Source: Bacillota bacterium
Lineage (GTDB): Bacteria > Bacillota > Clostridia > Peptostreptococcales > Anaerovoracaceae
DNA length: 46,252 bases
Assembly (NCBI GenBank): GCA_016283945.1
Contig: JAEENW010000084.1
Location: 1 to 46,252 of the forward strand
Direction: 5' to 3'
Below are positions 6,370 through 27,089 of this stretch, in pieces (position 1 is the first letter of the stretch; every line of letters starts with the position of its first letter). Below the pieces are notes generated by a model. It saw nothing but the letters and a program-made list of their open reading frames with translations. It was not told the DNA's origin and ran no database searches. A program made the translations under genes and the position numbers.

Positions 6370-7341
6370 ATGAACTTCACATCCTTTGATTACTTCATCG
6401 AGGTCGAAAAGCACCGCAGCTTCTCAAAAGCCGCGGACGCTCTGCACGTCTCCCAGCAGGCCCTGAGCTCCCACATCTCTTCGCTGGAGAAGGAGCTGGG
6501 CTGCCTGCTCTTCGTGCGGCACATACCGCTCGAGCTCACCTACGCCGGCGAGCATTTCCTGAACTACGCTCACAGCTTCGTGAACGACTACACGAACATG
6601 ATCAGGGAGTTCCAGGACATCTCCGAGGAGCGCAAGGGAAGGCTCAAGATAGGTGTGACGCACACGAGGGGCAGGGCGATACTGCCCGACCTCATCACCA
6701 TGTTCCAGAAGGAATATCCCGGCTTCGAGGTGGAGGTCGTCGAGTCCACGAGCGAGTTCCTCGCGGACAAGCTGCTGTCCCACGAGATAGACGTCGCAAT
6801 AGGATACATAGACGATCAGGACGGCATAGACACGGAGCTCTTCTACGACGAGGAGATGCTGCTCATGATCCCAAGAAGGATGCTTCTGGAGCTCGCGGCC
6901 GAGCGCGCGGGCGAGGACGGGATCTACGAGTTCGACCCCTCGATACTCAACGACTGTCCGATGATGCTCGGAAGCCGCGACGACATGAGCGGCATACTGA
7001 TCAGGAAATACCTCAAGGACAACAGGCTCGATCCTCCCATCAGGGCGAGGGCTGAGAACATCGAGACCCTCATAATGCTCTGTGTAAAGGGCGTCGGAGC
7101 CTGCCTCTGCCCGGAGTCGCTCATCAGGTCGACTCTGACCAAGGAGCAGATCGAAGAGCTGTCGATAATAGCTCCCGACATCCACACTCCGGTCAAGTTC
7201 GCCACGAGGAAGGAAGGCTATCAATGGACCGCGATCGAGGAGTTCAAGAAGCTCGCCCACGATAACATCGAGGCGATCATGAACCTGAACGACCCGGTCA
7301 AGAGGAACAACCGGCTGAGCGTCGCAGCGCAGCAGAGATGA
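6370..7341 (+). CDS. LysR-family transcriptional regulator
   Basis: N-terminal wHTH FSKAADALHVSQQALSSHISSLEKELGCLLFVR followed by a LysR substrate-binding region. Length 323 aa. Confidence 0.9.
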   Translation: MNFTSFDYFIEVEKHRSFSKAADALHVSQQALSSHISSLEKELGCLLFVRHIPLELTYAGEHFLNYAHSFVNDYTNMIREFQDISEERKGRLKIGVTHTRGRAILPDLITMFQKEYPGFEVEVVESTSEFLADKLLSHEIDVAIGYIDDQDGIDTELFYDEEMLLMIPRRMLLELAAERAGEDGIYEFDPSILNDCPMMLGSRDDMSGILIRKYLKDNRLDPPIRARAENIETLIMLCVKGVGACLCPESLIRSTLTKEQIEELSIIAPDIHTPVKFATRKEGYQWTAIEEFKKLAHDNIEAIMNLNDPVKRNNRLSVAAQQR

Positions 7342-7895
7342 TGACAGACGACCAGCTGTATCAAAGCTATCTCGCGGGCGACGCGCCCGCGGGCGACGAG
7401 CTCATGCTCCGCAACAGCGACGCCCTGACGGCCTATCTGGCGGGCTTTCTTGAGCATGCGCAGGACGCGGAGGACCTGATGCTCGACTGCTTCACGGTGA
7501 TACTGGTCGACAAGCCCCGCATAGGGGAAGGGCACTTCCGCTCCTACCTTTTCAAGGTGGCGCGGAACAAGGCAAACAGGCTCTGGAGGATGAGGTACAG
7601 GCGCAGCGAGTTCAGCCTCGACGAGGGACTCATCGAGAGCATGGACGACGGGCTTCCTCCGGACGAGGAGCTCTGGAAGAAGGAGCGCGGCGCCATACTC
7701 AGGAGCTGCATCAACCGCATAGCCCCGCAGTACAGGGAGGCGCTGTGGCTCATATACGACATGGAGATGAGCTACGCGCAGGCCGCTGAGGTCATGTCCT
7801 GCGGGACGAAGAGGATAGAGGATCTGCTCAGAAACGGAAAGAAGAGACTGAGAGCCGAGCTCGAGAAAGAGGGTATAAGCAATGCGGACATCTGA
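7338..7895 (+). CDS. sigma-70 family, ECF-type sigma factor
   Basis: Region 2-like FRSYLFKVARNKANRLWR and region 4 PQYREALWLIYDMEMSYAQAAEVMSCGTKRIEDLLRNGKKRLRAEL. Length 185 aa. ATGA overlap with the LysR stop. Confidence 0.85.
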   Translation: MMTDDQLYQSYLAGDAPAGDELMLRNSDALTAYLAGFLEHAQDAEDLMLDCFTVILVDKPRIGEGHFRSYLFKVARNKANRLWRMRYRRSEFSLDEGLIESMDDGLPPDEELWKKERGAILRSCINRIAPQYREALWLIYDMEMSYAQAAEVMSCGTKRIEDLLRNGKKRLRAELEKEGISNADI

Positions 7896-8244
7896 AGAGA
7901 GAGTCAGAGAACTTCATATGAGGATGGACGCGAGAAGGAAGGCCAAAGCCTCCCGCAGGCTCAGCGCCTCGGTCCTCGCGGTCACGCTCGGCCTCGCCGC
8001 TTCCATCGCGGCGGCGATAAGGATATCGAATATGGCCTATGTTGAAGCAGCCGGCCTCGCGGGAAACGCCGAGGGAAGCATCTTCGCGGAGCGCGGCGCT
8101 CTCGGCGTCATAGTCGTCGCGGTGCTCGCTTTCTGCCTCGGCTCCGCGGTGACCATACTCTGCTACAGACTGCGGACGGAGCGCCGCGACATGCCGAAGA
8201 TGCCGGTACGCCCCGGGGAGGTCAGCGATGGTCTTCGTGAATGA
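7882..8244 (+). CDS. small two-TM membrane protein, putative non-canonical anti-sigma factor
   Basis: Overlaps the sigma gene by 14 nt. Has a basic N-terminal helix (EERVRELHMRMDARRKAKASRR), two predicted TM helices and a basic tail. No HxxxCxxC zinc anti-sigma motif. Paralogue of the product of 9727-10065. Confidence 0.55.
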   Translation: MRTSEERVRELHMRMDARRKAKASRRLSASVLAVTLGLAASIAAAIRISNMAYVEAAGLAGNAEGSIFAERGALGVIVVAVLAFCLGSAVTILCYRLRTERRDMPKMPVRPGEVSDGLRE

Positions 8245-8848
8245 GAACCTCATTCAGTCGGCCGTGCTGATAGCGTGTTCCCTGGTATCGATCAGCAAGG
8301 CAATAAAATACAAGAGCAGGACCTGGTCTCTCCTCAGCTTCTTCTACGGATGCTGGCTGATAGACGACGTCTACTGGATGCTGTACGCCCTGTTCTTTGA
8401 CGGAAAGACGCCGACGCTCAGCGTGCTTTCGGACCTGAACTGGTACGCCTCGTACGTATTCCTGTATTTTCTCATCAGGCAGGTAGCTCCTCCGTATACG
8501 CGCCGTGAGACGCGGGTCATTCCGTGGCTCGCCTTCGTCTTCACCTTCTCCATGGCGGCGTTCTACATGCAGTGGGGAGAGGTCTTAAGCAATCTGATCT
8601 ACGCCAATCTCATAGGGCTGCTCCTGTTTTCGGTCATAAGGAGGCTCATGGACCTCGACGATTACAGGGACATCCTGCTCCTCTGCGCGGTCAGCCTGTT
8701 CTTCGTCGCCTTCGAATACGGGCTCTGGACGGCTTCCTGCTTCTGGAGAGAGGACTCGCTCTTCAACCCGTACTACTGGTTCGACGCGCTCCTGACGCTG
8801 AGCTTTCCTTTCTTCATCGCGGCGACGGCAAAGGCGGTGAGATCATGA
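8228..8848 (+). CDS. polytopic (about 6 TM) membrane protein, unknown function
   Basis: GGGGAGG RBS 6 nt upstream of ATG. Translation is almost entirely hydrophobic helices rich in Trp, Tyr and Phe. Overlaps both neighbours (17 nt and 4 nt). Confidence 0.6.
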   Translation: MVFVNENLIQSAVLIACSLVSISKAIKYKSRTWSLLSFFYGCWLIDDVYWMLYALFFDGKTPTLSVLSDLNWYASYVFLYFLIRQVAPPYTRRETRVIPWLAFVFTFSMAAFYMQWGEVLSNLIYANLIGLLLFSVIRRLMDLDDYRDILLLCAVSLFFVAFEYGLWTASCFWREDSLFNPYYWFDALLTLSFPFFIAATAKAVRS

Positions 8849-9474: not shown

Positions 9475-9497
9475 CAGCTCCCGGACCGATCGAGTTC

Positions 9498-9526
9498 AAA
9501 GCGCCCCGAAGGGGGCGCTTTTTTTA
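9498..9526 (+). terminator. rho-independent terminator ending the sigma/PrsW operon
   Basis: AAAGCGCCCC-GAAG-GGGGCGCTTT stem-loop followed by a T7 run. Confidence 0.85.
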
Positions 9527-9531
9527 TGCGT

Positions 9532-9591
9532 GAAAGGGGAGCCCGCTATTCCGCCGCGCGGGAAAGGGGAGCCCGCTCTTTCGCCGCCCGG
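9532..9591 (+). repeat. two tandem 30-bp direct repeats (27/30 identical), with a degenerate third unit to about 9621
   Basis: Unit 1 is GAAAGGGGAGCCCGCTATTCCGCCGCGCGG and unit 2 is GAAAGGGGAGCCCGCTCTTTCGCCGCCCGG. They sit between the terminator and the giant-gene operon. Confidence 0.9.
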
Positions 9592-9726
9592 AAAAAGGAG
9601 CGGGCGCTCCGCGGCGCAGAGGAGCGCGGCAAGAATTCAAAAAAGTATAAAAACCGCTTCGGGTATTTCCCGCCTGCAGGACACTTATGTGTTGAAAGAC
9701 TGTTTAGAAAGGAGCATACCGCCGTG

Positions 9727-10065
9727 ATGACAAAGGAAGAAAAGATCTCGGCTCTGCACCGGCGCATGAAGACGCGCGTCAAACGGCGCGAAAGGGCAAA
9801 GACAGCCGCTCTGGGCGCGTCCTGCGCCTGCATGACGCTGTGCCTCGCGGTCATGGTCTTCGGATGTGACCCCGCTCATACCGGCGGTCCTGCGGGGATG
9901 TTCAGCGGGGCGACGATGCTCTTCGAGCACGCGGGAGTATACGTACTGACCGCCATCTGCGCCTTCTTCGCAGGCACAGCGGTCACCCTGATCTGCATTC
10001 GAAATCAAAGAAAGCGTCCGGGAAACAGAGGCGCTGAAGTATCTAACAGGGAGGAAAAGCCATGA
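9727..10065 (+). CDS. small two-TM membrane protein, paralogue of the 7882-8244 product
   Basis: AAGGAG lies 11 nt upstream of ATG 9727; the 9526 start in the ORF track runs through the repeat region. Product MTKEEKISALHRRMKTRVKRRERAK..., with TM2 AFFAGTAVTLICIR versus AFCLGSAVTILCYR in the paralogue. Its stop overlaps the ATG of the 2625-aa gene (ATGA). Confidence 0.7.
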   Translation: MTKEEKISALHRRMKTRVKRRERAKTAALGASCACMTLCLAVMVFGCDPAHTGGPAGMFSGATMLFEHAGVYVLTAICAFFAGTAVTLICIRNQRKRPGNRGAEVSNREEKP

Positions 10066-13000
10066 AACTCAAGCGATTGCTGTCGGTCGTTCTGACGGTC
10101 TGCCTGATCATCTGCGCGGTCCCGATGAGCGCGATGCCCGTCTTCGCTGACGACGGTCCGGGAGGCTACGACGAAGATCCCGACCGGCCGCCCGAAACGA
10201 CGAACTATCCCGATCCCGAGTACTCGCTCTTCTGCAGGCCTGAGCTCGCGCTGTTCAACGCTCGGACCAGTGCCAAGGAGGACTATTTCCAGTCCGTCAT
10301 GAGGAGCAGCCACTACAACGCGGTAGCGGCGGGGTACTTCAAGGAGAGGGATTCGGGCAGCGTCCTCAAGTACGACACCGTGCTCAAGGGCTACGACGTC
10401 TATCTCTGGGATGACTTCCGCGACACCGAACTGGCCAGGCTCAGCGACAGCTACGGGCAGCTCAAGGTGGGGCTCGCGGCCACCCTGGACTGCTACGATC
10501 ACAAGCATACCTCCGGCACCCACAAATACGACGTGATCGGCTACAACAAGCTCGAGCTCACGCCTCTCACCGGCGCCATGGGATACGGCTCTATAATCTC
10601 GGCCAGCGGCTATTCCAAGACCGAGACGAGCGTCCGCAGGGGCAGCGCCGAGTTCAGCGACCTTCCCGGCGGAATGTACAGCGTGCCCGGAGACAGCGAC
10701 GCGCCCGGCCACTATCTGGGGCTCGAGTGCTACAGGGAAGCTATCTCCTGGCCGGGCGGGATCTGCGACTGCGGAGGCAAGGCCAAGGAATTCGCCGTCA
10801 CCTTCTGCGACGACAGCGCTCCCAGCCTCGCAGAGGTCAGCATCCTCAACGAGGCCGGCGATCCCTGCACCGATTTCGGAAAGGGCGATAAGATCGTCAT
10901 AAAGCTCAGATACGACGAGCCCGTGCGCTTCGCCGACGACAGGGCCGCGGGCAAGGGCAAGCTCTGCATAGGCCTCATGGTCGAGAACAAGGGGCAGGGG
11001 GACTGGCTTTACGCCCACCTCACGAGCCTCGAGAACGATACACTGACCTTCGAGTACATAGTCGATCCGCGCGACACGAAGCTCTATACCGTAATAGGGC
11101 TCGACTTCGCTTCCGCCGCCGATGACGGCTCCGCTCTCGTCCACAGCAGCGCGGACATAGCGCTCAGGACTATCGAGGAGGACGGATACGTCACCGTGAC
11201 CAAGCCGGGATCCGTCGAGAGCCCGGAGGGCTTCACCAAAGCGAGGAGCTACATCACAGACCTCGCGGGCAACCCCATCAGTAACGAGCAGCCCGTGAAG
11301 CGCTTCTACATCGACTGCGAATCTCCATACGCGGCTAAGGTCAGCTTCGACGCCGAGCTCAACAACGGCGACATCAAGGCGCTGCGCGGGGTTACGGAGC
11401 TCGATCCCAAGGATCCCAAATACGGAGATCCCAGCGACCTGTACCTCGGAGCAGGAGACCTGCTCGGCTTCAATCTCTATTTCAACGAGCAGGTCTTCTG
11501 GGAAGAGTGCGAGGGCTATTTCATCGACAACGCGTACGTGGTGACAAACCTCAGGTACGACAACGGCACATACCTCGAGCTCGATATCGCCGATTTCAGA
11601 TTCCTCGTGCAGGCGAGCAGCCTCGGAAAACAGTTCGGCAGGGGAAGGTCCAACGGCCTCGTGAGCAGGCTCTCGACCTCAAGGCTCCCGCTCCCCGCGG
11701 ACAGCAAGACCCACCTGACGGTAGACGACCCCAGCGGAAAGGACGAGATCAAGATCACCTCTGTCCATCTTGAGGGCAGCGGCATCGCCGACAGCTCGGG
11801 CAACCTGGCCTCGAGCGCCTTCAGCCCGGCTCAGGAGAGCTACAAGCTCGATACCTCCGCGCCGGTCTTCAGACTTGGAGACGCGGTGCAGACCGGAGGA
11901 GCCAACAGCACGTTCACCATACCCTTTATCATCACAGACAACGAGGGCGGTTCGGGAGTCGAGGAGCTTCCCGCGAGCCTCAAGCTCAGCGATCCCAACG
12001 GAAGCTCGGGGCGCATACAGTACGCCGTGAGCGCGTTCGCGGCGCCTCCGGCAAAGGCCTCCGACTGGCACGACGGGATCATGGGAAGCGATATCTCATT
12101 CGTCCAGACCTCCGACTGGCAGTATCTGCACGTTAAGCCGGATCCCGAGGCCCACTTCGACCTCGGCCCGGATCAGGAGCTCGGCATCAGCTTCAAGCTT
12201 CAGGATTACGCTGGAAACAGGGCTGACACCGCAGCGATCGGCGTTGAGGGAGTAGCCCTGGACAGCGCGCCTCCTACCGTCACCTCGGGTGACGTGAGCC
12301 GCAGCTACGACAACAGCGCGGACAGGGGCACCATAAGCGTGGTCCTCAAGGCCGCCGACGCGAGCGGCATCGATTCCATCAAATACCAGTGGCTCGAGCC
12401 GGGCTCCTCCGGGAGCGATATCGACGAGGACGCCTGGATCCAGGCCGTCAGGCAGGGCGGAAAATGGACCGCTTCCGGCACCGTCGATACGGGCGAGGTC
12501 TTCAGACAGGATCTGTGGGTCTACGCCGAGGACGGCGCGGGCAACGCGGGAGTAACCGGGCTCGGCTGCTTCAGCTACAGCCTCGAGAGCACCGATTACG
12601 CGCTCGACTGGTCGCCGGCCATCATGACGGCGGTCAAGGCAGGCGTGAGCTCGCTCGAAAACGGCGGAGCGCTGCTCTTCGACGTCAGGCTGAGCGGGGA
12701 CGGCGCCCATTACATCCACTTCGCGGACAGCGAGGAGTCCGACGTATTCGCCGGAAGCTGGCAGAGCGCGGAGTTCAGCGACGAGGACGGCTATACCTTC
12801 ACAGAGCTCGAAGACGCGGATGATTTCCTCGAAGACTATACGGGCAATGTGAACGTCACCGTATACTCCGGAAGCGCCGACATGTTCGAGGAGCTCGGCG
12901 AAGACGGTGAAGACGGCTTGACAGTCGCGGACAGCGCCGTGACGGAGGAGTTCACGCTGAGGCAGTCCCCGGCGGGAAACACCGCTGAAGACGTCTTCTC

Positions 13001-16000
13001 CGCGGACATCGAAGACATCTTCACCCCGGCAAGCGCCGCGGAGCTCGCGAGGCTGACTAACAAGGTCACGGAGCTCCCCTGGACCGTGGACAGCGAAGAG
13101 AGAAATCCAGCGAACACCGAAGGGCTAAGGGTTACCATAGACCTCGGCAGCGACAGGAACGGCTGGAACTACGAGGACATCGACTGGAAGAACTCGTTTA
13201 TCTCCGTCTACTCCGACAGCGATCCCTACGCTGCGGTCTCCCAATACGACTTGATCACGGACAGAGATTATTGCATGCTCTGCGCCACCGGCAGCGGACC
13301 GGTCCAGACCCTGACCCTGCCGGAAATTGATCTGGAGGGGGAAGGCGTCGATTACGCCAATCTGTTCCTTATACTGGCGAGACACAGCGCGCCAGACGCG
13401 CCCTACGCGATCGAGCTGTACGCGGGAGGCGAGGAGTTCGTCTTCGACGGTACCGAGCCGGGAAAGCTCGAGCTTCAGCATCTCGGCAGACAGTACGAAG
13501 ATGAAGAGGGACGCTACTACGATCTAGCCTTCGACCCCTCATCGACCATCTATATACCGACGGAAAGCACTCCGGTCGCGCTCTCCGTGGAAGCCCTCAG
13601 ACGCTGCACTTCCTACAATGGCGATGAACCGTATACCGAATACAAGTCCTTCGACTTATATGACAAGGACGTCGCCGGAGTCATAGGCGCGGTCGACATC
13701 GTCGCCTGGAACGCTGACGATCCCGACGAGAAGATCAGCCTCGCCTGCTCCTGGTTCGATTACAGCAACAACAACGGTCCCGGAGAGGACGACCCGAGAT
13801 ATATCTACATGTACGAGGACGGCAGCGAGGCCCTCAGGAGCGGAAAGCGCCTGCTCCGCTTCGGAGACGCGACCGACGCGTCCACGGGAACCATAGGCGT
13901 AGAGGCGGGGAAGGACAATACAGTAGCCCTGCAGATAGTCTGCGCCAACGGCAGCAGCTCCGAGATCTGCTACATCACCGTCCATCCGGTGAAGATCGGG
14001 CTGGAAGGGGAGGTCTCGATAGAGACACCCTACGATCTGGATCTCAAGGGAAACGCGAGCGTCGCGACCGTGGGGCCGGACGAAGCGTACATCGTGTTCA
14101 GTCCGGACAGCGGATATAACGCCGAGGGACTCGAGCTCTTCGCCGCCTGGGGATATCTCCGCACTGACGGCAGCTACGGGTTTGATTCGGGGATCCCCAT
14201 GACCATGCAGGGCGACGGCAGCTGGAGGGCGAAGGTCCCGAACGCGGATTTCTGGTCATGTCTGGACCATCCTGATGACTATATGACCTGCGGGATAATA
14301 AATCCCATGTACGACTCGGAGATTGGCCTTACCGGCTACTCGATCCCGATGGATTTCGAAGATGGCTACATCGATCTGACACATCACGGGAACCTGAGCG
14401 ATCCGCCTCCTTACTACGTCGTTTACGCTGCCGATCAGTACGGGAATAAGCATGCGATGGGCATCACCGACTGGGCTGTCGTTGCCGACAGGAGCGCGCC
14501 CCTGTTCACGAGCGATAACATGCGGCCGCTGGGCAGCATAGACACCGCTTCGGACGGCACGTACACCGCGGCCTTCGAGCTGGTCGACGACAGCTTCTAC
14601 TCCTGGGATTCCTACAGCGGAGAGATCATTTCAAGGCCTGTCACCCTCGAGTTCTTCTTCGACTCTAAATACGCCGAGGCAGCCGGGAAGCCGGCAGCGA
14701 GGCTGACCCTGAGCGGGATAGAGGACGGTTTCGTCTGGAAGGACGGAGACGGAAACGGCACGGGCATATACGAGGTGACCGCTGAGATGGTCCGCGAGGG
14801 CACGTTCAACAGCCACAATTACTACGGAGAAATAGCCACATACGCAGGCGGAGCGAAGTTCGCGCGCATGATCGTCACCGTTAAGGGCGCGGTAAGCCCC
14901 GAAGTGACGGCGCCCATGCCCATGACCCTGTTCGCGAAGGCGACGGACGCTCACGGCAATACCAACGGATGGACAATGCCGGACGCGGACTTCCAGTATT
15001 TTGACGATATCATGGACGAGGGAGACTACGCCAGATTTGACAATCCCGGCGTGGTACACGCGAGAAGCGTCTCCGGCGTCAAGCCGAAGGTGACCGGCAC
15101 CGTCTACAAGAGGACCGGTGAAGGTGACGACATGGCACTTTACGTCAACTTCAGTGCTCCCGTGCGTCCGCTCGAGAGCTGGATACGCTCGAGCGACGGA
15201 GAGCCGGAGGGCTACAGCACCGAGTGGCACGACGCCTTCCCGATCTGTAAGGACGGCAGCTGGAACATAAGCTACAGCGACCCCTTCGGCAATACCTACA
15301 CGGAGGAGCTGGCACTCGACGGCGTGTTCGGCGAGTACGGCTACGATCTTTCCTTCTCGACCCTCGACTGGGTCTCCAAGGAGACCGGAGTCACCGTTAC
15401 GGCGGTCGAGGACGACGACAGCGAGAGCCTGAGCGGAAGGGCGCAGTACAGCGAGGGCGGCGCCTTCGAGGATATGCCCGAGGCCACGGCGACCTTCACG
15501 CAGAACGTCCACGAGTATCAGATCGTGCGCAGCGCGAACGGCAAGAATGACATACTGCGCGTACACATAGGAAACATAGTCGACGGAGCTCCGGAGGAGA
15601 CCCTGTACTTCCGCATGGACGAGTTCAGCAGGACCTACAAAGAGGGTACGCAGCCCCGGGGCGAGACCTTCGGAAACGTCACCGTCTCGTACAGGACCGA
15701 CCGCGAGACCAGCCCCGTGGGCGCCACCGAGAAGACCTTCAGGGAGGGCGACGACGACAGCTTCAGCTTCAGATACTATGACGCCGCCACCGATAAGCAA
15801 TACACCATCAACGGAAGCCTCGGAAAGTACGGTATCAGCATTGGCCACTTCGTTCCCTACGAGGACGAGGAGGCCCCCTCGATAGACCTGGTCAGCGTCT
15901 GGAAGCAGAGGGCTGACGGCTTCATACAGGCGGACGCCTTCCCCGGCAGCGCGGACGACGATGCGGTAAAGGCCTCAATTGCCGCCTGCGGCACCGCCCA

Positions 16001-17939: not shown

Positions 17940-17951
17940 GGAGGCAAGCAA

Positions 17952-20900
17952 ATGAGACTAAGCAAACGGATCCTTTCACTTTTCCTCTGTTTTGCCCTGA
18001 TCCTGCCGATGCTGCAGCTCCCGGCCTTCGCGGCCGAGGATGAGGCCGTCAGCATCGACAACGGATACATAGAGGCCAGCGTGTCGCTCAAGAACGGCGG
18101 TTTCCTCATCAAGACCGTCGAGGGCGACCTCCTGGAGAAGTCCGACAACAACAAGAAGCTGCTCTACCACAACGGGCACTACGACACCTCGTTCGTGTCC
18201 TTCAGGGTGGGCAGCGGCAAGGATGCCAGAGACTATCTCTTCGGAGGCAAGTACCCAGGCTCCAGCGGCGTCACCGTCGCGAAGACCGCCGGCGGCGAGA
18301 TCGCCGCGGTCTGGAGCGTGGACGGCATCACCTTCACCCAGCTCATATCGCTGGCTGAGGACAACTCCAACGAGCACGGAATGGTCTCGATAAGCCTGTC
18401 CGCCCGCAACGACAGCGGCAGGGCGGTCCCCGTCAAGGCGCGCGTCCTGCTGGACACCTGCCTGGGCGACAAGGACTACTCGTACTACCAGTTCACGGGC
18501 ATGGACTACACCCAGACCCTTGACCAGGAGCAGATCATCACCGATCCCGTGACCATCAGGAGCTTCTACTCGATAGACGACGTCGCCGATCCCAGGATCG
18601 CCGCCTACGTGGTCTCCGAGCCTGAGAAGGTCGCGATCGGCCACTGGAACGACCTGGCCTCGAGCCTCTTCGACTTCGCGCCGGACGAGGGGATGGGCTT
18701 CACCAACATATCCAACGAATTCCTCACCGCCGACAGCGCCTGCGCGATGTACTACGACCTCGGCACCGTCGCCAGCGGCGGAGCGGGCTCCGCGCTGCTG
18801 TTCTACGGCATCTACTCGAACAGCAAGGTCAAGCTGCAGAACAGCGTAGCGATCAACGCGGTCGCGCCCATGCGCCTGCAGCTCAACGGCGACAGGAGCG
18901 GCTACGTCAGGGAGAGCAGCGTCGGACAAGCCGACTTCTCCGTGACCGTCAGCGCCGAGAACTACAAGAGCGACAGCTCCCGCAAGCTCAGGGACGTCAA
19001 GCTCGCCGTGACCAGCACGAGCGGCCTGCGCCCCCTGAGCGACAGCGGGCAGCCCGTGAGCGGCCTCGACTTCAGCAGCGCCTCGCCGCTCACCGTTCCC
19101 TACGCCGAGATAGAGGAGGGCGAGACGGTCACCAAGACCGTGCACTTCCAGGCCAAGCCGCTCGAATCCGCGAGCTATGAGCGCATCACCATAGGCATGT
19201 ACGAGGGCGAGATCACAGGCGACAAGCTGCTCGGAGAGAAGGTCATATACCTGCTGCTGCCCGGGAATGACGGAAACATACCCAAGATCGGCTTCATCTC
19301 CATGAAGCCCGACACGGTCTACAACTCCGGCACCAGGCATCTCTACGCCGCCGTGAGCAACGACGTGCTGCTCGACGACTCTCTCTCCGCCGGCAACGCC
19401 GCCTTCAAGGCTTACAGCACCGACGGCAAGAAGTCCTGGAGCATACCCGCGTCGAACATAACCGTCAACGATGGCATCGCGGACATAGTGCTCGACGGCG
19501 AGCTGGAGCTGCCCGTGGGCAACTACTACCTGCAGCTCGAGTGGAGCGACGCCGCGGTTGACAAGGAGATCGTCGAGGCCAGGCATCAGAAGCAGACCGC
19601 CGAGTGCCTGAAGTTCGGCATCTCCGACAACCCGAAGTACAGGAACGACAGCTACGGAGTCCTCGCCGTGGTCAAGTACGGAAAGGGCACGGCGGACGTT
19701 CCATACTACTACCGCATAGAGAGGTTCGCCGACGAGGCGGGCTTCCAGAGCTTCTCCTCCGCGAAGGATCACGCCTGGAAGGAGATACTCATAGTCCTGC
19801 GCGGAGCCTTCACCGCCGACAACCGCTACCTCGTCAAGGAGAACGGCAAGACCACCGGAGGGCTCTACTACTCCGCGGTCAGCAAGAAGGTCGTGGATCC
19901 CAGGACCAGGAAGGAAAAGATCGACAACCCCGTCACGATCAACAACTGCGTCGACTTCGAGGGCGGGACCATCTCCATATACTACGAGAACTACGAGCAG
20001 GGCGTTTCCGGCGCTCTCGGCTCGCCTATACTGGTCGAGATCGACGGCGAGCTCTACACGAGCGGAGCCAGGACCTCGGTGTGGACAGGCAAGGCGGCTC
20101 TGACCAAGATAGAGCAGGGCAACGACTACTCGCTCATCCGCTACACGGCCAACGGAGTGCGCAAGCAGAGCAATTCAACGCCCATAACCCTGATCTGGCC
20201 GAACGTCTTCAGCGTGGCTCAGACCATCGCGGGCATGGTGTTCAAGCTGGCATACGGCCAGTTCGGAGTCATGGAGGTGGACGGCAAGGAGGCCGACAGG
20301 GTCATATCCTTCAGCGCCGGCCTGTCCCTGAGCTTCCTCAGCGTCGCAGATGACGACGATACCGACTACGGCACGGCGAGCTACTTCGGCCGCATGCAGG
20401 AGCTATGGAAGGACTGGCGGGGAGCGAGCATATACCAGTACGCTTACCACGGCAGCCGCTTCGAGAAGCTCACAGACCTGAGCATGAACGACCGCAACGC
20501 GGCGCCTGACACCCAGAAGGGCGCGCAGGCCTCGGTCATGATACAGGACATACTCTTCGGAAAGGAAGGACTGGTCGGGCTCAACTTCGAGGTCGACGTA
20601 ACCATACGCAACGTCATCGAGAACTTCGCCGCCATCGAGGGCAAACTCTCCATCAACACCATCAACGACTGGTCCTTCGGCCTCGCGGGCAACTGCAAGA
20701 TGACCGACAAGATCAAGATGGAGGCGAAGCTCAGCTTCAAGAGCAAGAACGACATACCCATCCCCGACGAGCTCTACTTCTACATAGGCGGGATCAAGCC
20801 GGGACTCAACGCCGACGGCTGCGGCGTCATCTGGATAACCGGAGCCGGCGGAGGCTTCTCCAACCTCTACGACACGATATTCTGCACGAGCGGGCTTCCG

Positions 20901-23900
20901 CCCCTCAAGCTGATAATGACCCTGAGCTTCAGCTTGATCCAGGTCCTCGACGGAACGGGCAAGCTGGAGATGTCCCTGAACGGTTTCACGCTGACCGGCA
21001 CCGACATCAAGGTCGCCGACACGATCGAGGTCATCAAGAAGGTGCAGCTGGGCTTCCAGTGGCTTCCCGACCTCAAGCTCCACGCGGCGATCTCCGTGAG
21101 CATGTTCGAGAAGTGCATCGAGGGCAACGGCTACATCATACTGGTCGGCAAGGATTACAGCGACTGGTTCTTCGAGATGTTCCTCAGAGCCGCGGTGAAG
21201 ATCCCCGCGTCGGTCCCCGCCGTTGGCGGCATGAACATCGCGGCGGCTGACCTGGGCATTAACACCGAGAAGATCTGGGGCGCCGTGGAGGTCGTCAAGA
21301 TCTACACCGGCATCACCTACTACTGGGGCGAGGAGGGAGTCAAGTTCGGCTCCTCCGGAGACAAGGCCTATCCGACCTATCCGAACCTCCTCTTCCAGGG
21401 CACCGGCGAGAAGGAGGGCGGCTATCCCGTAGCCTACGACGAGGAGAACGACCGCACCCTCTACATGAAGGTCGGCACCAACTTCGAGGCGCCGAGCTTC
21501 GCTCAGCCCATGTCCGAAGGCGACCTGATCCTGATGGACGCCAGGGGCATATGGTCTGACGGAGACAAGACCGCCCACAAGTTCAACCTGGGCGACTACA
21601 GAAGCGGGAACACCCAGTCCATGATCCAGATAAGCTTCGACGCCGAAAGCCTCGAGGAGGCCAGGGCGCTCGCCGCGGGCTTCAGCGTGACTGACGCGAA
21701 GGGCGGCGGAAACGAGCTGCCTCTGACCTTCTACGACGGAAGCAACATCGACGAGGCCGACGCGAACGTCACCTGGTACGAGGGTAAGGCGAGCATGGGC
21801 TTCTCCGTGACCGACCCGGCGCACTTCGGAAAGAACTGGTTCATAAGCACCGGAAGCGCCGCAGCGGACGTGCTGATGTACAACGTGCAGCCTCTGCCCG
21901 AGCTCGATTCCGTGTCGGCCGGCGGCGCGCTCGCCGCAGGCGGCAGCGCGGAGATCAGCTGGACCGGAAGTGCCCTTGACGAGCTCGACAGCGTAAGCTT
22001 CTTCCTCGCGGAGAGCGACGATCCCTCGAGCGACGCGGGCTATCCCCTCACCGGGGAGGACGGCTACGGCAGCCTTACCGACAGCGCCGTCATCTGCGGC
22101 GGAAGCGCCTCGCTGACCGTCCCGGCAGACATCCCCGCGGGGGACTACCTCGTGAGGGCGGTCTACTCCAAGGACGACCAGGTCAACGGAGTGATCCACA
22201 GCTCCTCCAGAGTGAGGCTCACCAACGACAACACCCCGGCCGCGATAGACAGCCTGAGCATAGCCTCCGCCGGAGACCTGAAGTTCAGCGTCACCGTGCC
22301 CGAGCCGGCTGACAGCGTGACCACGGTCTACGCGGTCAGCGTCTATGACGAGGACGGAAACGCGACCGACATAACCGATATGACCGTCGAGAAGGCGGAA
22401 GACGGCGCCACCCGCTTCGAGGTGGGCGGAAGCTATACCGCTCCAGTAAAGGCCGACGGCAGCGATCCCGACTCCGCCACCAGAGGCAGCGAGGTCTTCG
22501 GGCTCGAAGGCGGCAGGCGCTACATCATAGGCGTCACCCCCTGCGCGGCCGTTGACAGCGACGGCGACGGCGAGGCCGATACCATGGTGTACGGCAGGGA
22601 ATACCTCAGCCAGGCCGTGCTGCTCCCCGAGGCCGTGACCCCGGAGGTCAGGCTCAGCGCCGGCGGGAAGACCCTCACGTCTATAAGCGGCATGGCTGAC
22701 GGCGCCGCTGAGACCGTATTCGGAGAGAGCAGCCTCGACTTCAGCGCCAGCTTCTCCGAGGCCGTCAGCGGGACCTGGATCCTGGACGACAGCGGAGCCT
22801 TCGGAGAAGGGGAGGAGGGCGCCGGCGGAAGCTTCGGCCCCGCCCAGAGCGCGTCCTTCAGGATAGAAGGCCTGAGCGATGGCACTCACACCCTGACGCT
22901 CAGGGGCAGCGCGCTGGACGGAGACCGCTTCTCCGAGTCCTACAGCTTCACGGTGGATACCGAGGCTCCCAGGCTCATGATAAGCTCCCCGCTGAGCGGC
23001 AGCGCCTTCGGGGAGGGCGGACGCCTGCTCATCGAGGGCATCAGCTCCCCGGACGCCCTGCTTAGCGTAAGCATAGACGGCAGGCCCGTTATAAGCGGCA
23101 AGACCGTCTCTCAGGCCGGAGGAAGCATCGACAGCGAGGGCATCTTCTCCATAGAGCTCTCCATCCCCGAGTACAACAGCCGCGCCTCCCACAGCGTGAC
23201 GATCGCGGCTGAGGACGTAAACGGAAACAGCACCGAGCCCTACGAGGCCTTCGTCGTCAACCCGGCGCTCGGCGACCTCGCCGAGATCGTCATCATGGCT
23301 GACGGCACGGAGCCCCCGGAAGGAAACATCGACACTTCCGCCGCCGGCAGCGCCTCTCTCAGCCTCGCGGGCATCACGTCCAAGGGCATGCGCTTCGCGC
23401 TCGATCCCGACATGGTGCTCTGGAGCGCCAGCGCGGCCGAAGGCGAAGCGGTCGTCAGCAGCGACGGAAAGCTCAGCTACGCCGCGTCCACCAAGGGCTT
23501 CGTGACCGCGATGGTCGAGATCTCGTCCGGAGCTTACCGCAGCGCCTACCTGACGCTCGGCTCCGACAGCGCCGAGGGCTTCGTATCCGTGAGCTCCACC
23601 ATAGGCGGAAGCGCCTCGGGCGGCGGCTACTACGCGCCCGGCTCCGCGGTCGTCCTCAGAGCGTCGGCCGATACCGGCTACGCCTTCAAGGGCTGGCAGA
23701 TCAGCGGCGTCAGCGTCGCAGACAGCTCCGCGGCCGAGATAAGCTTCACCATGCCGGCGGGCAGCGTCAGCGCCAAAGCTCTGTTCGAGAGTGAAGGCGG
23801 TCCCAAGCCCCAGCCCGCGCCTTCGGGCGGCTCGGGCAGCGATTCCGTTCTCGGTTATAAGGACATCCCCGAGGGCGCCGATCCAATGCGCTACGTGGCG

Positions 23901-24569
23901 GTCTACACGGACGCCGGCGGCAGCGTAAAGACAGTGCCGATGTCCGCGGTCGACGGCAGAACGCTCATCTACCTGAAGCCCGAGGGAGATGCGGTGCGCT
24001 TCGAGGAGCGCCCGGCAGCCTTCAGCGACATAGAAGGGCACTGGGCAAAGGACTACGTCATAAGGGCGGCGGCGAGCGGCCTCTTCTCCGGAGTAGGCGA
24101 AGGAAAGTTCGATCCTCAGGGGACCATGACGAGGGCCATGTTCGTCACCGTGCTGTACCGCCTCGCGGGCAGTCCGAAGACGGGCGGAAGCTGCCGCTTC
24201 ACGGACGTCGCGAAGGGCTCCTGGTACGAGATCCCCGTGATCTGGGCTCAGGAGGGCGGCATCGTCAGCGGAGTCAGCGAGACCTCGTTCGACCCGAACG
24301 GAAGCGTGACCAGGGAGCAGATGTGCGCGCTGGTCGCGAGATACATACGCTCCGCGGGCTATAAGCTCGAGCTCGGCGTGAAGAAGAGCTTCACTGACGC
24401 GGCGAGCATCGCCTCCTGGGCAGCCGAAGATGTTGAGTTCTGCCAGAGGGCCGGCATCATCGAAGGAAAGTCCGGCGGCGGCTTCGATCCGAAGGGCTTC
24501 GCGACCCGCGCGGAAAACGCGGCGGTCATGAGGCGTCTGACGGAGGCCGTTATCCGCAGCCTGCGTTGA
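17952..24569 (+). CDS. giant secreted S-layer-homology protein (2205 aa)
   Basis: GGAGG RBS; ATG lies 12 nt after the stop of the previous gene. Signal peptide MRLSKRILSLFLCFALILPMLQLPAFA/AEDE. Three C-terminal SLH repeats. One D-T-E-A-P Ig-type boundary. Confidence 0.9.
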   Translation: MRLSKRILSLFLCFALILPMLQLPAFAAEDEAVSIDNGYIEASVSLKNGGFLIKTVEGDLLEKSDNNKKLLYHNGHYDTSFVSFRVGSGKDARDYLFGGKYPGSSGVTVAKTAGGEIAAVWSVDGITFTQLISLAEDNSNEHGMVSISLSARNDSGRAVPVKARVLLDTCLGDKDYSYYQFTGMDYTQTLDQEQIITDPVTIRSFYSIDDVADPRIAAYVVSEPEKVAIGHWNDLASSLFDFAPDEGMGFTNISNEFLTADSACAMYYDLGTVASGGAGSALLFYGIYSNSKVKLQNSVAINAVAPMRLQLNGDRSGYVRESSVGQADFSVTVSAENYKSDSSRKLRDVKLAVTSTSGLRPLSDSGQPVSGLDFSSASPLTVPYAEIEEGETVTKTVHFQAKPLESASYERITIGMYEGEITGDKLLGEKVIYLLLPGNDGNIPKIGFISMKPDTVYNSGTRHLYAAVSNDVLLDDSLSAGNAAFKAYSTDGKKSWSIPASNITVNDGIADIVLDGELELPVGNYYLQLEWSDAAVDKEIVEARHQKQTAECLKFGISDNPKYRNDSYGVLAVVKYGKGTADVPYYYRIERFADEAGFQSFSSAKDHAWKEILIVLRGAFTADNRYLVKENGKTTGGLYYSAVSKKVVDPRTRKEKIDNPVTINNCVDFEGGTISIYYENYEQGVSGALGSPILVEIDGELYTSGARTSVWTGKAALTKIEQGNDYSLIRYTANGVRKQSNSTPITLIWPNVFSVAQTIAGMVFKLAYGQFGVMEVDGKEADRVISFSAGLSLSFLSVADDDDTDYGTASYFGRMQELWKDWRGASIYQYAYHGSRFEKLTDLSMNDRNAAPDTQKGAQASVMIQDILFGKEGLVGLNFEVDVTIRNVIENFAAIEGKLSINTINDWSFGLAGNCKMTDKIKMEAKLSFKSKNDIPIPDELYFYIGGIKPGLNADGCGVIWITGAGGGFSNLYDTIFCTSGLPPLKLIMTLSFSLIQVLDGTGKLEMSLNGFTLTGTDIKVADTIEVIKKVQLGFQWLPDLKLHAAISVSMFEKCIEGNGYIILVGKDYSDWFFEMFLRAAVKIPASVPAVGGMNIAAADLGINTEKIWGAVEVVKIYTGITYYWGEEGVKFGSSGDKAYPTYPNLLFQGTGEKEGGYPVAYDEENDRTLYMKVGTNFEAPSFAQPMSEGDLILMDARGIWSDGDKTAHKFNLGDYRSGNTQSMIQISFDAESLEEARALAAGFSVTDAKGGGNELPLTFYDGSNIDEADANVTWYEGKASMGFSVTDPAHFGKNWFISTGSAAADVLMYNVQPLPELDSVSAGGALAAGGSAEISWTGSALDELDSVSFFLAESDDPSSDAGYPLTGEDGYGSLTDSAVICGGSASLTVPADIPAGDYLVRAVYSKDDQVNGVIHSSSRVRLTNDNTPAAIDSLSIASAGDLKFSVTVPEPADSVTTVYAVSVYDEDGNATDITDMTVEKAEDGATRFEVGGSYTAPVKADGSDPDSATRGSEVFGLEGGRRYIIGVTPCAAVDSDGDGEADTMVYGREYLSQAVLLPEAVTPEVRLSAGGKTLTSISGMADGAAETVFGESSLDFSASFSEAVSGTWILDDSGAFGEGEEGAGGSFGPAQSASFRIEGLSDGTHTLTLRGSALDGDRFSESYSFTVDTEAPRLMISSPLSGSAFGEGGRLLIEGISSPDALLSVSIDGRPVISGKTVSQAGGSIDSEGIFSIELSIPEYNSRASHSVTIAAEDVNGNSTEPYEAFVVNPALGDLAEIVIMADGTEPPEGNIDTSAAGSASLSLAGITSKGMRFALDPDMVLWSASAAEGEAVVSSDGKLSYAASTKGFVTAMVEISSGAYRSAYLTLGSDSAEGFVSVSSTIGGSASGGGYYAPGSAVVLRASADTGYAFKGWQISGVSVADSSAAEISFTMPAGSVSAKALFESEGGPKPQPAPSGGSGSDSVLGYKDIPEGADPMRYVAVYTDAGGSVKTVPMSAVDGRTLIYLKPEGDAVRFEERPAAFSDIEGHWAKDYVIRAAASGLFSGVGEGKFDPQGTMTRAMFVTVLYRLAGSPKTGGSCRFTDVAKGSWYEIPVIWAQEGGIVSGVSETSFDPNGSVTREQMCALVARYIRSAGYKLELGVKKSFTDAASIASWAAEDVEFCQRAGIIEGKSGGGFDPKGFATRAENAAVMRRLTEAVIRSLR
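23577..23789 (+). other. divergent InlB B-repeat-like domain in the 2205-aa protein
   Basis: GFVSVSSTIGGSASGGGYYAPGSAVVLRASADTGYAFKGWQISGVSV...AKALFE fits the G.V...G.Y..GS.V.L.A....GY.F.GW pattern. Confidence 0.5.
24021..24566 (+). other. three tandem SLH (S-layer homology) domains
   Basis: The three repeats are FSDIEGHWAKDYVIRAAASGLFSGVGEGKFDPQGTMTRAMFVTVLYRL, FTDVAKGSWYEIPVIWAQEGGIVSGVSETSFDPNGSVTREQMCALVARY and FTDAASIASWAAEDVEFCQRAGIIEGKSGGGFDPKGFATRAENAAVMRRL. Confidence 0.9.
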
Positions 24570-24648
24570 TCGGGATCCGCTTATAAACGGGACACGAGCT
24601 GAAAGGCATCCTCCGTGACATACTGCCTGCGCTGATCGGGGATACAGG

Positions 24649-26211
24649 ATGGAAAAAACAACTATCAAAAAATCGATACGGCGCATAGCGCTGCTGCTCA
24701 CAGTGCTTCTGGCGCTGGCGGGGTCCTCCGATGCGGCGTTCGCAGTAAACGCGGACGCCGCTCCCCCGGCATGCCCCCGCGTCCGTATCGCCTTCATAGA
24801 CAGCGGGATCAGCACCAGGCACATAGACGAGAGCCTGGTCGAGCCCGGAAGAAACTACGTTTTCCCTGAAGCGGATACCCGGGACAGGATAGGCCACGGC
24901 ACCGCTGCCGCGAGCCTCGTGCTTGGTTCCGCCGATCAGGGAGTGCCCGGAGCGCCTTGCTTCGCTCCGGAAAACGGCCAGGGGAGCTTCGCTGAAGACT
25001 TCTCCGGCCTGCCTGAAGAGCATCTCCCCGTCCCCCCAGGGGCGATGAAAGCAGCCGCGGCCGTCCCGCTCGTAGTCATCGACGCCTATCCTACGGGCGC
25101 GATAAAAAACGGCGGGACGGAAGCGCTCTGCCGCGCGATCTTCGACGCGGTGGACGAATTCGGCTGCAGCATTATAAACATAAGCCTTTCGACCTCCGAG
25201 GACAGCGAGGAGCTAAGGAGAGCCTGCGCCTACGCGGAGGAGAAGGGCGTAGTCATAGTGAGCGCCGCGGGAAACGACGGAGAAGGCGGACCTGCATACT
25301 ACCCGGCGGCCTACGGCAGCGTGATATCCGTGGGAAGCTCCAGCGGCGGCGCCGCGGCCGGCTTCTCGGGAAACGGAGCGTACGTGCTGGCTGAGGGCGT
25401 CGATCTGACTGCGGCGAGCTGCAGGAACGGGAGCGCTCCCGTGACGGTGAGCGGGACATCTTACTCCTGCGCGATCGTGACCGGCGTCTGCGCCGGGATC
25501 AGGGCGCGTTATCCGGACATGACGCCTGCTGAGGTCCGCGAGGCGCTCGCGCAGCTTGCCGAGGACATGTACGAGCCCGGCTTCGACGCGAGGAGCGGCT
25601 GGGGAAGGGTCTCGAGGGACGCTGAGGTCCCGTATCCCTTCAGGGATCTGCCTGCCGGAAGCCAATATCTGGAAGCGGCTCTGTCCCTGTCCGGGATGGG
25701 CATTATGAACGGCTGCGGCGGGCTCTTCATGCCGGACGCCCCGATGACGAGGGCTATGACGGTCTGCGCTCTGCACAGGCTGGCCGGAAGCCCCGAGCCG
25801 GCGGGGTACGCGAAGCGCGTCGAGGACAGCGAAGCAGATCGGCCCGCTGAGGAAGCGAAATCGGCTGATGCAGGGCATTCTGTGGAAGCCGCGTTGCCGG
25901 ATGAATGGTACTCCGAAGCCGCCATGTGGGCGGCTGAGCAGGGGATAACAGAGAGCGTCGGATCCGCGCCCGGTGAGGCCGTCAGCGCGGAGCAGCTCCG
26001 GGCCGCTCTGAAGAGAATGGCTGAGATACTGAATGTCAGTGCGGTGATAGAAGACGGGGCTGCGGAAGACGAGACTTGTGCAGATCCCGCGGAGCATGAG
26101 ATGCCGGAAGGACCGGCAGATACCGCGGAGCCCGCGGTATCCGGAAAGCCGCTGACGCGCGGTGAAGCCGCGCTGATGATCGAAGCGTTCACGAGGATCA
26201 TGGAACCCTGA
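24649..26211 (+). CDS. secreted S8-family (subtilisin-like) serine protease with C-terminal SLH-type repeats
   Basis: Signal peptide ...LALAGSSDAAFA. Catalytic Asp (IAFIDSGIS), His (GHGTAAASLV), oxyanion Asn (SAAGNDG) and Ser (SGTSYSCAIVTG). C-terminal FRDLPAGSQYLEAALSLSGMGIMNGCGGLFMPDAPMTRAMTVCALHRL is one clear SLH, followed by two degenerate SLH-like units. Confidence 0.85.
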   Translation: MEKTTIKKSIRRIALLLTVLLALAGSSDAAFAVNADAAPPACPRVRIAFIDSGISTRHIDESLVEPGRNYVFPEADTRDRIGHGTAAASLVLGSADQGVPGAPCFAPENGQGSFAEDFSGLPEEHLPVPPGAMKAAAAVPLVVIDAYPTGAIKNGGTEALCRAIFDAVDEFGCSIINISLSTSEDSEELRRACAYAEEKGVVIVSAAGNDGEGGPAYYPAAYGSVISVGSSSGGAAAGFSGNGAYVLAEGVDLTAASCRNGSAPVTVSGTSYSCAIVTGVCAGIRARYPDMTPAEVREALAQLAEDMYEPGFDARSGWGRVSRDAEVPYPFRDLPAGSQYLEAALSLSGMGIMNGCGGLFMPDAPMTRAMTVCALHRLAGSPEPAGYAKRVEDSEADRPAEEAKSADAGHSVEAALPDEWYSEAAMWAAEQGITESVGSAPGEAVSAEQLRAALKRMAEILNVSAVIEDGAAEDETCADPAEHEMPEGPADTAEPAVSGKPLTRGEAALMIEAFTRIMEP

Positions 26212-26294
26212 GAACGGCAAGACGTTGTGAACACACCCGGACCTGCCCAAGGCGGCCGTTTCAGGCCTCCGGCGGCGGCAGGGGATAAGAAGAG

Positions 26295-26329
26295 CCGGGG
26301 CGCTGAAGGACGGCGCTCCGGTTGTGTTT
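26295..26329 (+). terminator. rho-independent terminator after the S8 protease gene
   Basis: CCGGGGCGC / GCGCTCCGG 9-bp stem (one G-U pair) followed by TTGTGTTT. The complementary side is followed by a T-rich CTCTTCTTAT, so it may act in both directions. Confidence 0.6.
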
Positions 26330-26333
26330 AAAA

Positions 26334-27075: not shown

Positions 27076-27089
27076 CGAACATTTGTTCT
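27076..27089. promoter_or_regulatory. LexA (Cheo-type SOS) box 4
   Basis: CGAACATTTGTTCT fits GAAC-N4-GTTC and is 13/14 identical to box 2 at 28754. It overlaps the stop codon of the SprT-like gene. Confidence 0.65.

Follow-up and report, generated by a model that had tools for sequence, protein, structure and literature searches.

We analysed a 46,252-nt stretch of DNA from a clostridial Bacillota bacterium (contig JAEENW010000084.1; the whole stretch is called the window below), in which an operon for an extracytoplasmic function (ECF) sigma factor and a PrsW-family intramembrane protease stands directly ahead of an operon for two giant secreted proteins, giant1 and giant2, and a secreted S8 subtilase. 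The comparison of this neighbourhood with others outlined two predicted transcription units with a recurring gene order, a dedicated promoter-like motif in front of the second unit, a predicted hairpin topology for two small paralogous membrane proteins (tm2a and tm2b) and a cargo that varies between loci. With good confidence, we think that the tm2b-cargo operon is under the control of the sigma module by way of the mapped motif. For the full mechanism, in which the sigma factor would be governed by a proteolytic anti-sigma step with feedback, we see slightly better than an even chance.

In the sensor unit the genes for a LysR-family regulator, the sigma factor, tm2a, a membrane protein with seven transmembrane (TM) helices and PrsW are joined by overlaps of 4-17 nt, and tm2b opens the cargo unit (Table 1). 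Open reading frame (ORF) calls and a check of the junctions returned the same gene coordinates, overlaps, gaps and terminators as an earlier note on this DNA. That note had read the two units as one regulator-plus-cargo system, a claim now upheld by synteny in at least 59 loci and by a conserved terminator and motif between PrsW and tm2b.

Table 1. Genes and signals of the sensor and cargo units in the window
Feature	Position	Strand	Remarks
Sigma-A-like promoter candidate	3689-3717	+	TTGAAA-17-TATTAT, before PBP_like_2 gene
LysR-family regulator	6370-7341	+	HTH_1 and LysR_substrate (Pfam); stop overlaps sigma ATG (ATGA)
ECF-type sigma factor, 185 aa	7338-7895	+	Sigma70_r2 and Sigma70_r4_2 (Pfam); sigma-2 and sigma-4 regions only
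tm2a, two-TM protein, 120 aa	7882-8244	+	14-nt overlap with sigma gene
7-TM membrane protein	8228-8848	+	17-nt overlap with tm2a; no family assigned
PrsW-family intramembrane protease, 209 aa	8845-9474	+	PF13367; 4-nt overlap with 7-TM gene
Intrinsic terminator closing the sigma/PrsW operon	9498-9526	+	hairpin 9498-9521 and T-run
30-nt tandem repeat	9528-9595	+	2.3 copies, 86% matches; between terminator and motif; units with GCGGG...CCCGC inverted repeat
Putative ECF-dependent promoter	9656-9691	+	GCTTCGGG 9656-9663 (-35-like), 16-nt spacer, GACAC 9680-9684 (-10-like), then TTATG
tm2b, two-TM protein, 112 aa	9727-10065	+	first gene of second unit; stop overlaps giant1 ATG
giant1, 2625 aa, secreted, acidic	10062-17939	+	signal peptide; all-beta; no wall anchor
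giant2, 2205 aa, secreted	17952-24569	+	Flg_new_2 and three C-terminal SLH domains (wall anchor); starts 12 nt after giant1
S8 subtilase, secreted, last cargo gene	24649-26211	+	Peptidase_S8 and one SLH domain; starts 79 nt after giant2
Cargo-operon terminator	26293-26333	+	hairpin 26293-26323, -25.7 kcal/mol, z = -5.2, U-rich tail UUGUGUUU

The loci came from a genome scan with an alignment of the 7-TM protein, and their ORFs in six frames were searched with the window proteins; the denominators that follow are the loci where the feature could be seen. Nearly all 59 loci are labelled Clostridia or Bacillota and most belong to rumen and gut metagenome-assembled genomes (MAGs); Dysosmobacter segnis BX15, Oscillibacter sp. 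MSJ-31, a Tepidanaerobacteraceae MAG and a Saccharofermentanales MAG are among them. PrsW directly follows the 7-TM gene in 59/59 loci, a sigma factor lies upstream of the 7-TM gene in 51/55, a tm2b-type gene comes after PrsW in 41/50, and a protein of at least 600 aa stands directly after tm2b in 23/32. Where contigs continue, this large protein carries a signal peptide, and the overlap of the tm2b stop with the cargo start (ATGA) is frequent across loci, as in the window. The metagenome contigs L006, L010, L011, L074, L078 and L079 (our locus numbers) show the same gene order. Congruently with what the earlier note expected of relatives, sigma/PrsW modules recur before large secreted proteins, Calx-beta/SLH giants included.

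The second line of evidence is a bipartite motif found before tm2b when the DNA is aligned on the start codon, ~50-150 nt and mostly ~70 nt upstream of it; in the window the distance to the tm2b ATG is 71 nt. A weight-matrix scan of 944 kb on both strands, with a matrix trained on these same sites, placed all matches of at least 15 bits in the PrsW-tm2b spacer, on the coding strand and one per locus, and in the window 9656-9691 was the sole site at this threshold. The motif was also found in loci outside the training set (L010, L022, L045, L048, L057 and L060, and L074 at 23.0 bits), and the window site scored 23.0 bits with a matrix from 11 other loci of its own promoter class, while the maximum of 200 shuffles was 7.5. 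A matrix from a single clade picks the same position in other clades with scores that fall within the range of the shuffles; since the similarity between clades is modest, the case across clades rests on position, spacing and conservation within each clade. Of the 39 motif-bearing loci, 28 have a hairpin and T-run in the stretch from the prsW stop to the motif.

Sigma-A-like promoters (at least 10/12 matches, within 200 nt) are distributed very differently between the two units: among non-redundant loci they were found before the sigma gene in 32/54 and before tm2b in 1/45, with a shuffle expectation of ~1.1 in each set. The earlier note had raised the case of a sigma-A promoter driving the cargo unit by itself, and none was found before tm2b in the window either, so that the cargo unit appears, as far as sequence can tell, to have a promoter of its own unlike that of sigma-A. 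In no locus did a motif of at least 15 bits lie upstream of sigma, where an autoregulated sigma operon would carry it. Because the sigma gene is preceded by sigma-A-like promoters and not by the ECF motif, the sensor operon looks constitutive rather than autoregulated. The sigma factor itself is of the ECF type (sigma-70 group 4) by hidden Markov model, as proposed before, with 62.3 bits against the cut-off of 42.9 for TIGR02937; no NCBIfam equivalog reached its cut-off, and the matches in the PDB sequence search (AlgU/SigH, CnrH, SigE and SigW) were weak, at E 5e-6 or weaker.

The cargo, by comparison, is interchangeable. In L078 and L079, whose giant1 is 40-55% identical to that of the window, a full sigma module and tm2b stand ahead of giant1, giant2 and S8. 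In the most distant case, L080 (8613-27902, giant1 24% identical), the same three genes occur without a sigma module and without tm2b; upstream of giant1 lie a LytTR response regulator, a non-membrane 82-aa ORF and TTTCCAATTTCGG-type direct repeats, and a HATPase_c_5 kinase lies downstream. In that locus the same cargo is wired to an Agr/LytTR-like system. A giant2 orthologue follows giant1 in L019, L078, L079 and L080, and an S8 gene follows giant2 in the last three, as seen from the contexts of the giant1 orthologues. By gene content, then, the giant1-giant2-S8 trio is a separable cassette. The pair of giants with their protease, which the earlier note took for the output of the system, does hold together as such a cassette, but it also occurs under LytTR and other loci carry other cargo in its place. 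The same note had placed tm2b in the cargo unit; we assign it to the regulator because it is absent from the L080 cassette under LytTR, and because it comes first in the unit whatever the cargo and is kept in seven loci that have no tm2a.

Elsewhere the cargo consists of Calx-beta/SLH proteins of 3,700-4,000 aa, collagen-repeat proteins, Flg_new/YDG proteins or beta-helix proteins; at one locus there are several small acidic secreted proteins instead, and at a few no cargo is apparent. Except for SLH ends, the cargo proteins share no common domain across loci, and the idea that PrsW or tm2b recognises such a shared cargo domain was dropped for this reason. In L036 (11420-19439) no giant gene comes after tm2b; a radical-SAM-like gene, small ORFs and ABC exporter genes stand there instead, and one of the exporters has an N-terminus like that of a C39 peptidase (domains judged by eye on N-terminal sequences). 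The module may there also control a cluster of the bacteriocin-like type or one for ribosomally synthesized and post-translationally modified peptides.

These results lead us to favour the following scheme. The first unit (sigma, tm2a, 7-TM protein and PrsW) would be transcribed constitutively, in the window behind lysR and possibly from the promoter at 3689, and tm2a would tether the ECF sigma at the membrane through a short basic N-terminal helix. When a signal arrives, presumably at the 7-TM protein or with its help, PrsW, gated by this protein or acting together with it, would cut tm2a in or near its outer loop; a site-2 protease and cytoplasmic proteases with genes elsewhere would then probably clear away the fragment that binds sigma. 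The freed sigma would then initiate at 9656-9691, giving tm2b, giant1, giant2 and S8, and tm2b would recapture the sigma, which amounts to negative feedback without positive autoregulation. The giants would be exported by Sec; giant2 and S8 would bind the wall by their SLH domains, giant1 would probably ride on giant2, and trimming by S8 is possible. We infer the binding of sigma by tm2a and tm2b, the cleavage by PrsW, the role of the 7-TM protein and the feedback, and jointly these steps would form an envelope-sensing proteolytic cascade. A sharper version, in which the hairpins are anti-sigmas cut in the short outer loop by a PrsW that a dedicated 7-TM receptor gates, and in which tm2b, through its coupling to the giant, tunes sigma to giant output, is one that we hold tentatively and place well short of an even chance. 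If it were true, sigma activity would be tuned to the giant protein made, exported or wall-assembled, with a tm2b:giant ratio fixed by translational coupling, and the cell would have a built-in dosage or quality control for very costly proteins.

The properties of the two-TM proteins are central to this scheme. tm2b is a paralogue of tm2a, as the earlier note had it (31% identity, BLASTP 2e-9), and in both proteins there are 10-11 Lys and Arg residues before TM1, 0-2 in the 21-25-residue loop and 7 after TM2. This positive-inside distribution of charges predicts a hairpin of the N-in/C-in type, both termini being cytoplasmic. The two subfamilies stay separate across the whole tree: tm2a carries the loop motif ASIFA...LGY and an acidic tail, and tm2b the loop motif GATLLFE.AGGYVL. 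Their N-terminal helices shift in parallel between clades, with His at position 12 of both proteins in 13 loci and Lys in both in 8, and with Met/Met at position 15 in 9 loci and Ala/Ala in 10, which fits a shared, co-evolving binding partner. An exhaustive profile search gave 1,723 representatives of 50%-identity clusters for the family, the 150 best-scoring of which are ~90-190 aa long. The tm2a gene overlaps the sigma stop codon, which is the position of a classical anti-sigma gene, and this position and the conserved N-terminal helix make tm2a a candidate anti-sigma. B. subtilis PrsW reportedly cuts RsiW between Ala168 and Ser169, a result attributed to Heinrich et al. in 2009; as a lead only, PrsW might cut tm2a at the conserved Ala-Ser of its loop motif ASIF.

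Besides the training of the matrix on its own sites and the modest scores between clades, several observations weigh against the favoured scheme. No site-2 protease gene lies in the window. Nine of the 32 loci mentioned above have no protein of at least 600 aa directly after tm2b; in L013 and L030, both among these nine, other secreted proteins follow. In L001-L004 a tm2-7TM-PrsW trio occurs without an adjacent sigma, and also without tm2b or cargo. The parallel changes in the helices of tm2a and tm2b could alternatively have come from gene conversion. Finally, none of 16 tm2 members matched a Pfam model, not even an anti-sigma one at E <= 1, nor did tm2a or tm2b match an NCBIfam model, and the cytoplasmic N-terminal part of tm2a and tm2b, at ~26 residues, is shorter than classical anti-sigma domains.

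These last two points would suit another reading, in which the tm2b-cargo promoter is indeed served by the sigma factor, but the two-TM proteins have a role other than that of anti-sigmas and control of the sigma lies with the 7-TM protein or a factor elsewhere; tm2a and tm2b might then be, for instance, PrsW substrates that report the state of the membrane, or insertion or export helpers for the giants. The translational coupling of tm2b to an exported giant in many loci agrees with this, and so do the seven loci without any tm2a (L056, L059, L061, L062, L064, L065 and L066), in which the 7-TM gene comes directly after sigma, and the promoter motif and tm2b are retained. On the other hand, the absence of tm2b under LytTR means that the cargo can do without it, tm2b is retained next to unrelated cargo or none, and both the gene position of tm2a and the co-variation of the N-terminal helices between clades speak for the anti-sigma role. 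We consider this reading unlikely, and yet the most serious of the alternatives.

The motif could also be an operator, perhaps of LysR, or the promoter of some other alternative sigma factor, with the two units as mere neighbours. It is without the classical AAC core found in the -35 of many ECF promoters, a conserved RRGAC-TTT element lies further downstream, and the window has both a LysR gene and the extra tandem repeat, which places its motif 181 nt past the prsW stop versus ~25-140 nt in most other loci. Its architecture argues otherwise: it is bipartite, of a single orientation and of fixed spacing, a T-rich tract follows its first block, and all its forms keep a 23-24-nt register filled with T-rich sequence and have TAT-rich sequence after the second block. 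By clade, a first block GGTTCGGG or GGTTAGGA goes with a second block GACAC, GGTGCGTA with (C/T)GTCCC or GTACC, GGTGGGGA with GTATT, and GGGGA(A/G) with GTATC. In several clades the second block thus contains CGTC or TGTC, as in ECF promoters, and blocks that differ by clade while position and spacing stay constant are as expected for a promoter co-evolving with its sigma. Moreover, modules with tm2b have the motif, and of the ten loci that lack tm2b nine lack the motif as well, the tenth, L045, having a weak site of 16.8 bits before an apparent degenerate tm2b ORF; and the motif is kept in the other loci, which are without LysR. An operator or a promoter of another sigma is improbable in our view.

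Coming back to the favoured scheme, its protease belongs to the PrsW family (PF13367, 43.8 bits versus a cut-off of 23.5). It scored only 24.7 bits against the cut-off of 225 for NF033739, the equivalog of B. subtilis PrsW, and being this far under the equivalog score we regard it as a member of the family and not as an orthologue. Residues E70 and E71, the motif F103xxxE107-N108, H134 and the motif H170xxxN174 are at least 95% conserved among 59 orthologues, and the catalytic motifs of the window protein are intact. The gene before it encodes seven helices in an AlphaFold2 model (pLDDT 85.8, pTM 0.85) rather than the six counted in the earlier note. Its family comprises 116 clusters at 45-61% identity plus outliers, nearly all ~200-220 aa long, with invariant aromatic motifs in the alignment and no Pfam matches. 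Foldseek returned only generic 7-TM bundles for the model (rhodopsins and class B GPCRs, best E = 0.04), for which reason the protein cannot be assigned to a family; it is a candidate sensor or PrsW partner. For tm2a, tm2b and the 7-TM protein alike, Pfam and NCBIfam gave nothing beyond TM noise.

PrsW and the 7-TM protein might instead act on the cargo, in the processing, release or export of the giants, and not on an anti-sigma. PrsW adjoins giant exoproteins in most loci, and comparative genomics has tied PrsW-family domains to the processing of secreted toxins (PMC3482391). However, PrsW is here a separate protein encoded in the sigma operon, with a terminator between it and the cargo; the cargo proteins are mutually unrelated and have ordinary Sec signal peptides; and the trio stands without PrsW in L080, while some modules have no large cargo. 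Such a role is very improbable. As for the adjacency of regulator and giants in the window being fortuitous, we dismiss it as barely credible: the units are separated by a strong terminator and ~200 nt and the cassette occurs with another regulator, but the arrangement is met again in dozens of loci, with 7-TM proteins no more than 29-61% identical to that of the window, and recurs for giant1 orthologues at 40-55% identity.

The cargo proteins of the window can be described further. giant1 belongs to a family of 37 clusters of 2,487-2,781 aa, conserved over the full length at 24-55% identity. Its residues 31-1000 gave an all-beta chain of sandwich domains in an AlphaFold2 model (pLDDT 83.8), with Foldseek matches to macroglobulin-domain arrays and to the giant adhesins SiiE and GhpA. 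An alpha2-macroglobulin reading was rejected: the protein has no CxEQ thioester motif and the TM-scores were low, so that the similarity is that of generic beta-sandwiches. Neither an LPXTG motif nor an SLH domain is present, no Pfam model matched beyond one weak Ig-like hit, and the PDB sequence search returned nothing. In giant2 the SLH model scored 113.2 bits in three stretches, and the only PDB matches were to SLH (the SLH region of Sap). The S8 protein (PF00082, 107.2 bits) has, by motif position, the triad D51, H83 and S271 and the oxyanion residue N209, and its SLH domain is one stretch at 23.8 bits versus a cut-off of 20.8. Among the NCBIfam models the mycosin equivalog TIGR03921 came first, yet below its cut-off (132.6 bits versus 278.75), and the window has no type VII secretion system genes. 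A metagenome scan with the S8 protein found three close relatives only. Against the 96-98% identical relatives L071 and L072, its acidic C-terminal linker has an in-frame indel of ~72 nt (26066-26127).

The terminator after the S8 gene, placed at 26295-26329 in the earlier note, was missed by our pattern scan and is borne out by the fold of the hairpin in Table 1. Collinearity with the close relative L072 stops at 26358, after which L072 has unrelated DNA with a run of small + strand ORFs; there is a strain-level breakpoint just beyond the cargo terminator. The following ~750 nt of the window (26330-27087) contain no credible ORF, a TTG ORF of 216 aa at 26322-26972 looking like noise, and gave no Rfam match at the gathering score or at E <= 1 and a fold z of -2.6. 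Rfam searches of the whole window and of 26250-27150 likewise gave no matches.

At the other end, the extent of the sensor unit needs some revision. The overlaps within the five-gene unit of the earlier note were confirmed, but its start possibly lies further upstream, where a PBP_like_2 gene (3762-4736) and a gene for a 541-aa lipoprotein (4708-6333) stand directly before lysR and co-directional with it. The lipoprotein carries the lipobox LSGC and a stretch with weak similarity to RsiV (E = 0.006). lysR begins only 36 nt from the end of the lipoprotein gene, and no sigma-A-like site lies directly before lysR or sigma in the window, the sole candidate being that at 3689-3717; for these reasons the first unit is perhaps longer than five genes, and the PBP_like_2 gene, the lipoprotein gene and the sigma module may form one seven-gene operon from the 3689 promoter. 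The LysR-sigma overlap is kept in L077, which is of the same species (7-TM protein 95% identical). LysR was found in no locus other than the window and L077; L074, with a 7-TM protein 61% identical, has GAPDH upstream and no LysR. Because it was found only in this species, we rejected LysR, contrary to the earlier note, as part of the conserved system; within the species it may give the sensor operon a further transcriptional input, as perhaps may the lipoprotein and PBP-like genes. The remainder of the window is a normal stretch of clostridial chromosome, with asnB, mutS, mutL, miaA, dxs and other genes, and the GC content is ~61%. A tyrosine recombinase of the Phage_integrase family (31804-32973, - strand) lies between a MatE transporter gene and miaA, in housekeeping surroundings.

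Some loci show variants of the module. In L078 a second sigma-tm2-7TM-PrsW module (24535-26245) follows directly after the S8 gene, and from this and from a contig of GCA_016648615.1 it follows that module-plus-cargo units can stand in tandem. A second sigma paralogue lies ~2 kb upstream in L056, L061 and L062. Ahead of the trio of L001-L004 lies a protein of 801 aa, which combines a zinc-ribbon-like CxxC motif at its N-terminus with one TM segment and a Pro/Thr-rich linker. In cultured Oscillibacter sp. MSJ-31 (L070, 9379-11000) the sigma and 7-TM genes appear broken up into short ORFs, and neither tm2b nor the motif is there; this copy of the module may be decaying.

Few genes of gut and rumen Clostridia are larger or less well understood than those for giant surface proteins, and hardly anything is known about when these proteins are made. 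The module described here is a widely distributed candidate switch for them, with one sigma factor, one clade-specific promoter, one protease with known catalytic residues and two unnamed membrane families. Its presence in at least one cultured species, Dysosmobacter segnis BX15, makes experiments possible. The design is unusual for ECF systems, with a constitutive sensor operon, no positive autoregulation and a paralogue of the candidate inhibitor as first gene of the target operon; as the sigma/promoter pairs differ between clades, they could serve as orthogonal parts for the engineering of anaerobes. The earlier note did not recognise the combination as a described system, and we agree: full-text searches gave no paper that ties PrsW to an ECF sigma together with SLH or giant cargo (tables of the ECF Hub groups lie outside this check, and the neighbourhood may already be catalogued in them), nothing was found in the literature on the two-TM or 7-TM families, and neither family has a Pfam or NCBIfam model.

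The closest known system is that of sigma-W, in which the proteolysis of RsiW involves PrsW as the site-1 and RasP as the site-2 protease (PMC3498285). Both systems have an ECF sigma, a membrane protein whose gene comes directly behind that of the sigma (here the candidate inhibitor), and a PrsW-family protease with the same Glu-Glu and His motifs (PMC3498285), and the release of the sigma by proteolysis would be another likeness. They differ in that RsiW is a single-pass protein that has a classical anti-sigma domain at its N-terminus and a domain of some size on the outside, while tm2a and tm2b are 110-120-aa hairpins with no recognisable one and do not fall under the sigma-W type of single-pass anti-sigma. 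Here prsW lies within the sigma operon alongside an extra 7-TM gene, the sigma operon is not autoregulated, and a hairpin paralogue heads the target operon. In B. subtilis, prsW is unlinked to sigW. The predicted output differs as well, being one dedicated target, the giant surface proteins, against the broad stress regulon of sigma-W. In Clostridioides difficile, PrsW is said, after work by Ho and Ellermeier in 2011, to be needed for the expression of ECF sigma factors, with prsW reportedly outside the sigma operon and resistance to antimicrobial peptides as the output. To our knowledge, no 7-TM partner, hairpin paralogues or giant SLH cargo have been described for that system.

The sigma-I/RsgI systems of cellulolytic clostridia resemble the module in having several paralogous sigma/anti-sigma copies per genome, each tied to large secreted or wall-bound proteins (PMC6056542, PMC6582324), to which the tandem modules of L078 are comparable. 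However, in sigma-I a sigma-I-C domain replaces sigma-4, whereas the window sigma has Sigma70_r4_2, and RsgI is a single-pass protein with an outer carbohydrate-sensing domain, in systems without PrsW and without a 7-TM protein. With sigma-4 present and no RsgI_N domain in the partner, we rejected an identity with sigma-I/RsgI. The PrsW-fused polymorphic toxins of Gram-positives likewise combine a PrsW-family protease with large secreted proteins (PMC3482391), but there the protease forms the N-terminal domain of the toxin, while here a gene of its own in the sigma operon encodes it and the exported proteins have Sec signal peptides and lack toxin domains; an identity with PrsW-dependent polymorphic toxins was rejected on the separate 209-aa PrsW and the absence of a toxin domain in the giants. 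On the side of the cargo, the SLH domains of giant2 and S8 match those of B. anthracis Sap, and the model of giant1 is a chain of beta-sandwich domains like the giant adhesins SiiE and GhpA; unlike SLH S-layer and adhesin proteins, giant1 forms a length-conserved family of ~2,600 aa that travels with giant2 and S8 (L078-L080). Altogether, the system combines familiar parts, an ECF sigma and PrsW, with new partners and a new wiring, and it is widespread in gut and rumen Clostridia.

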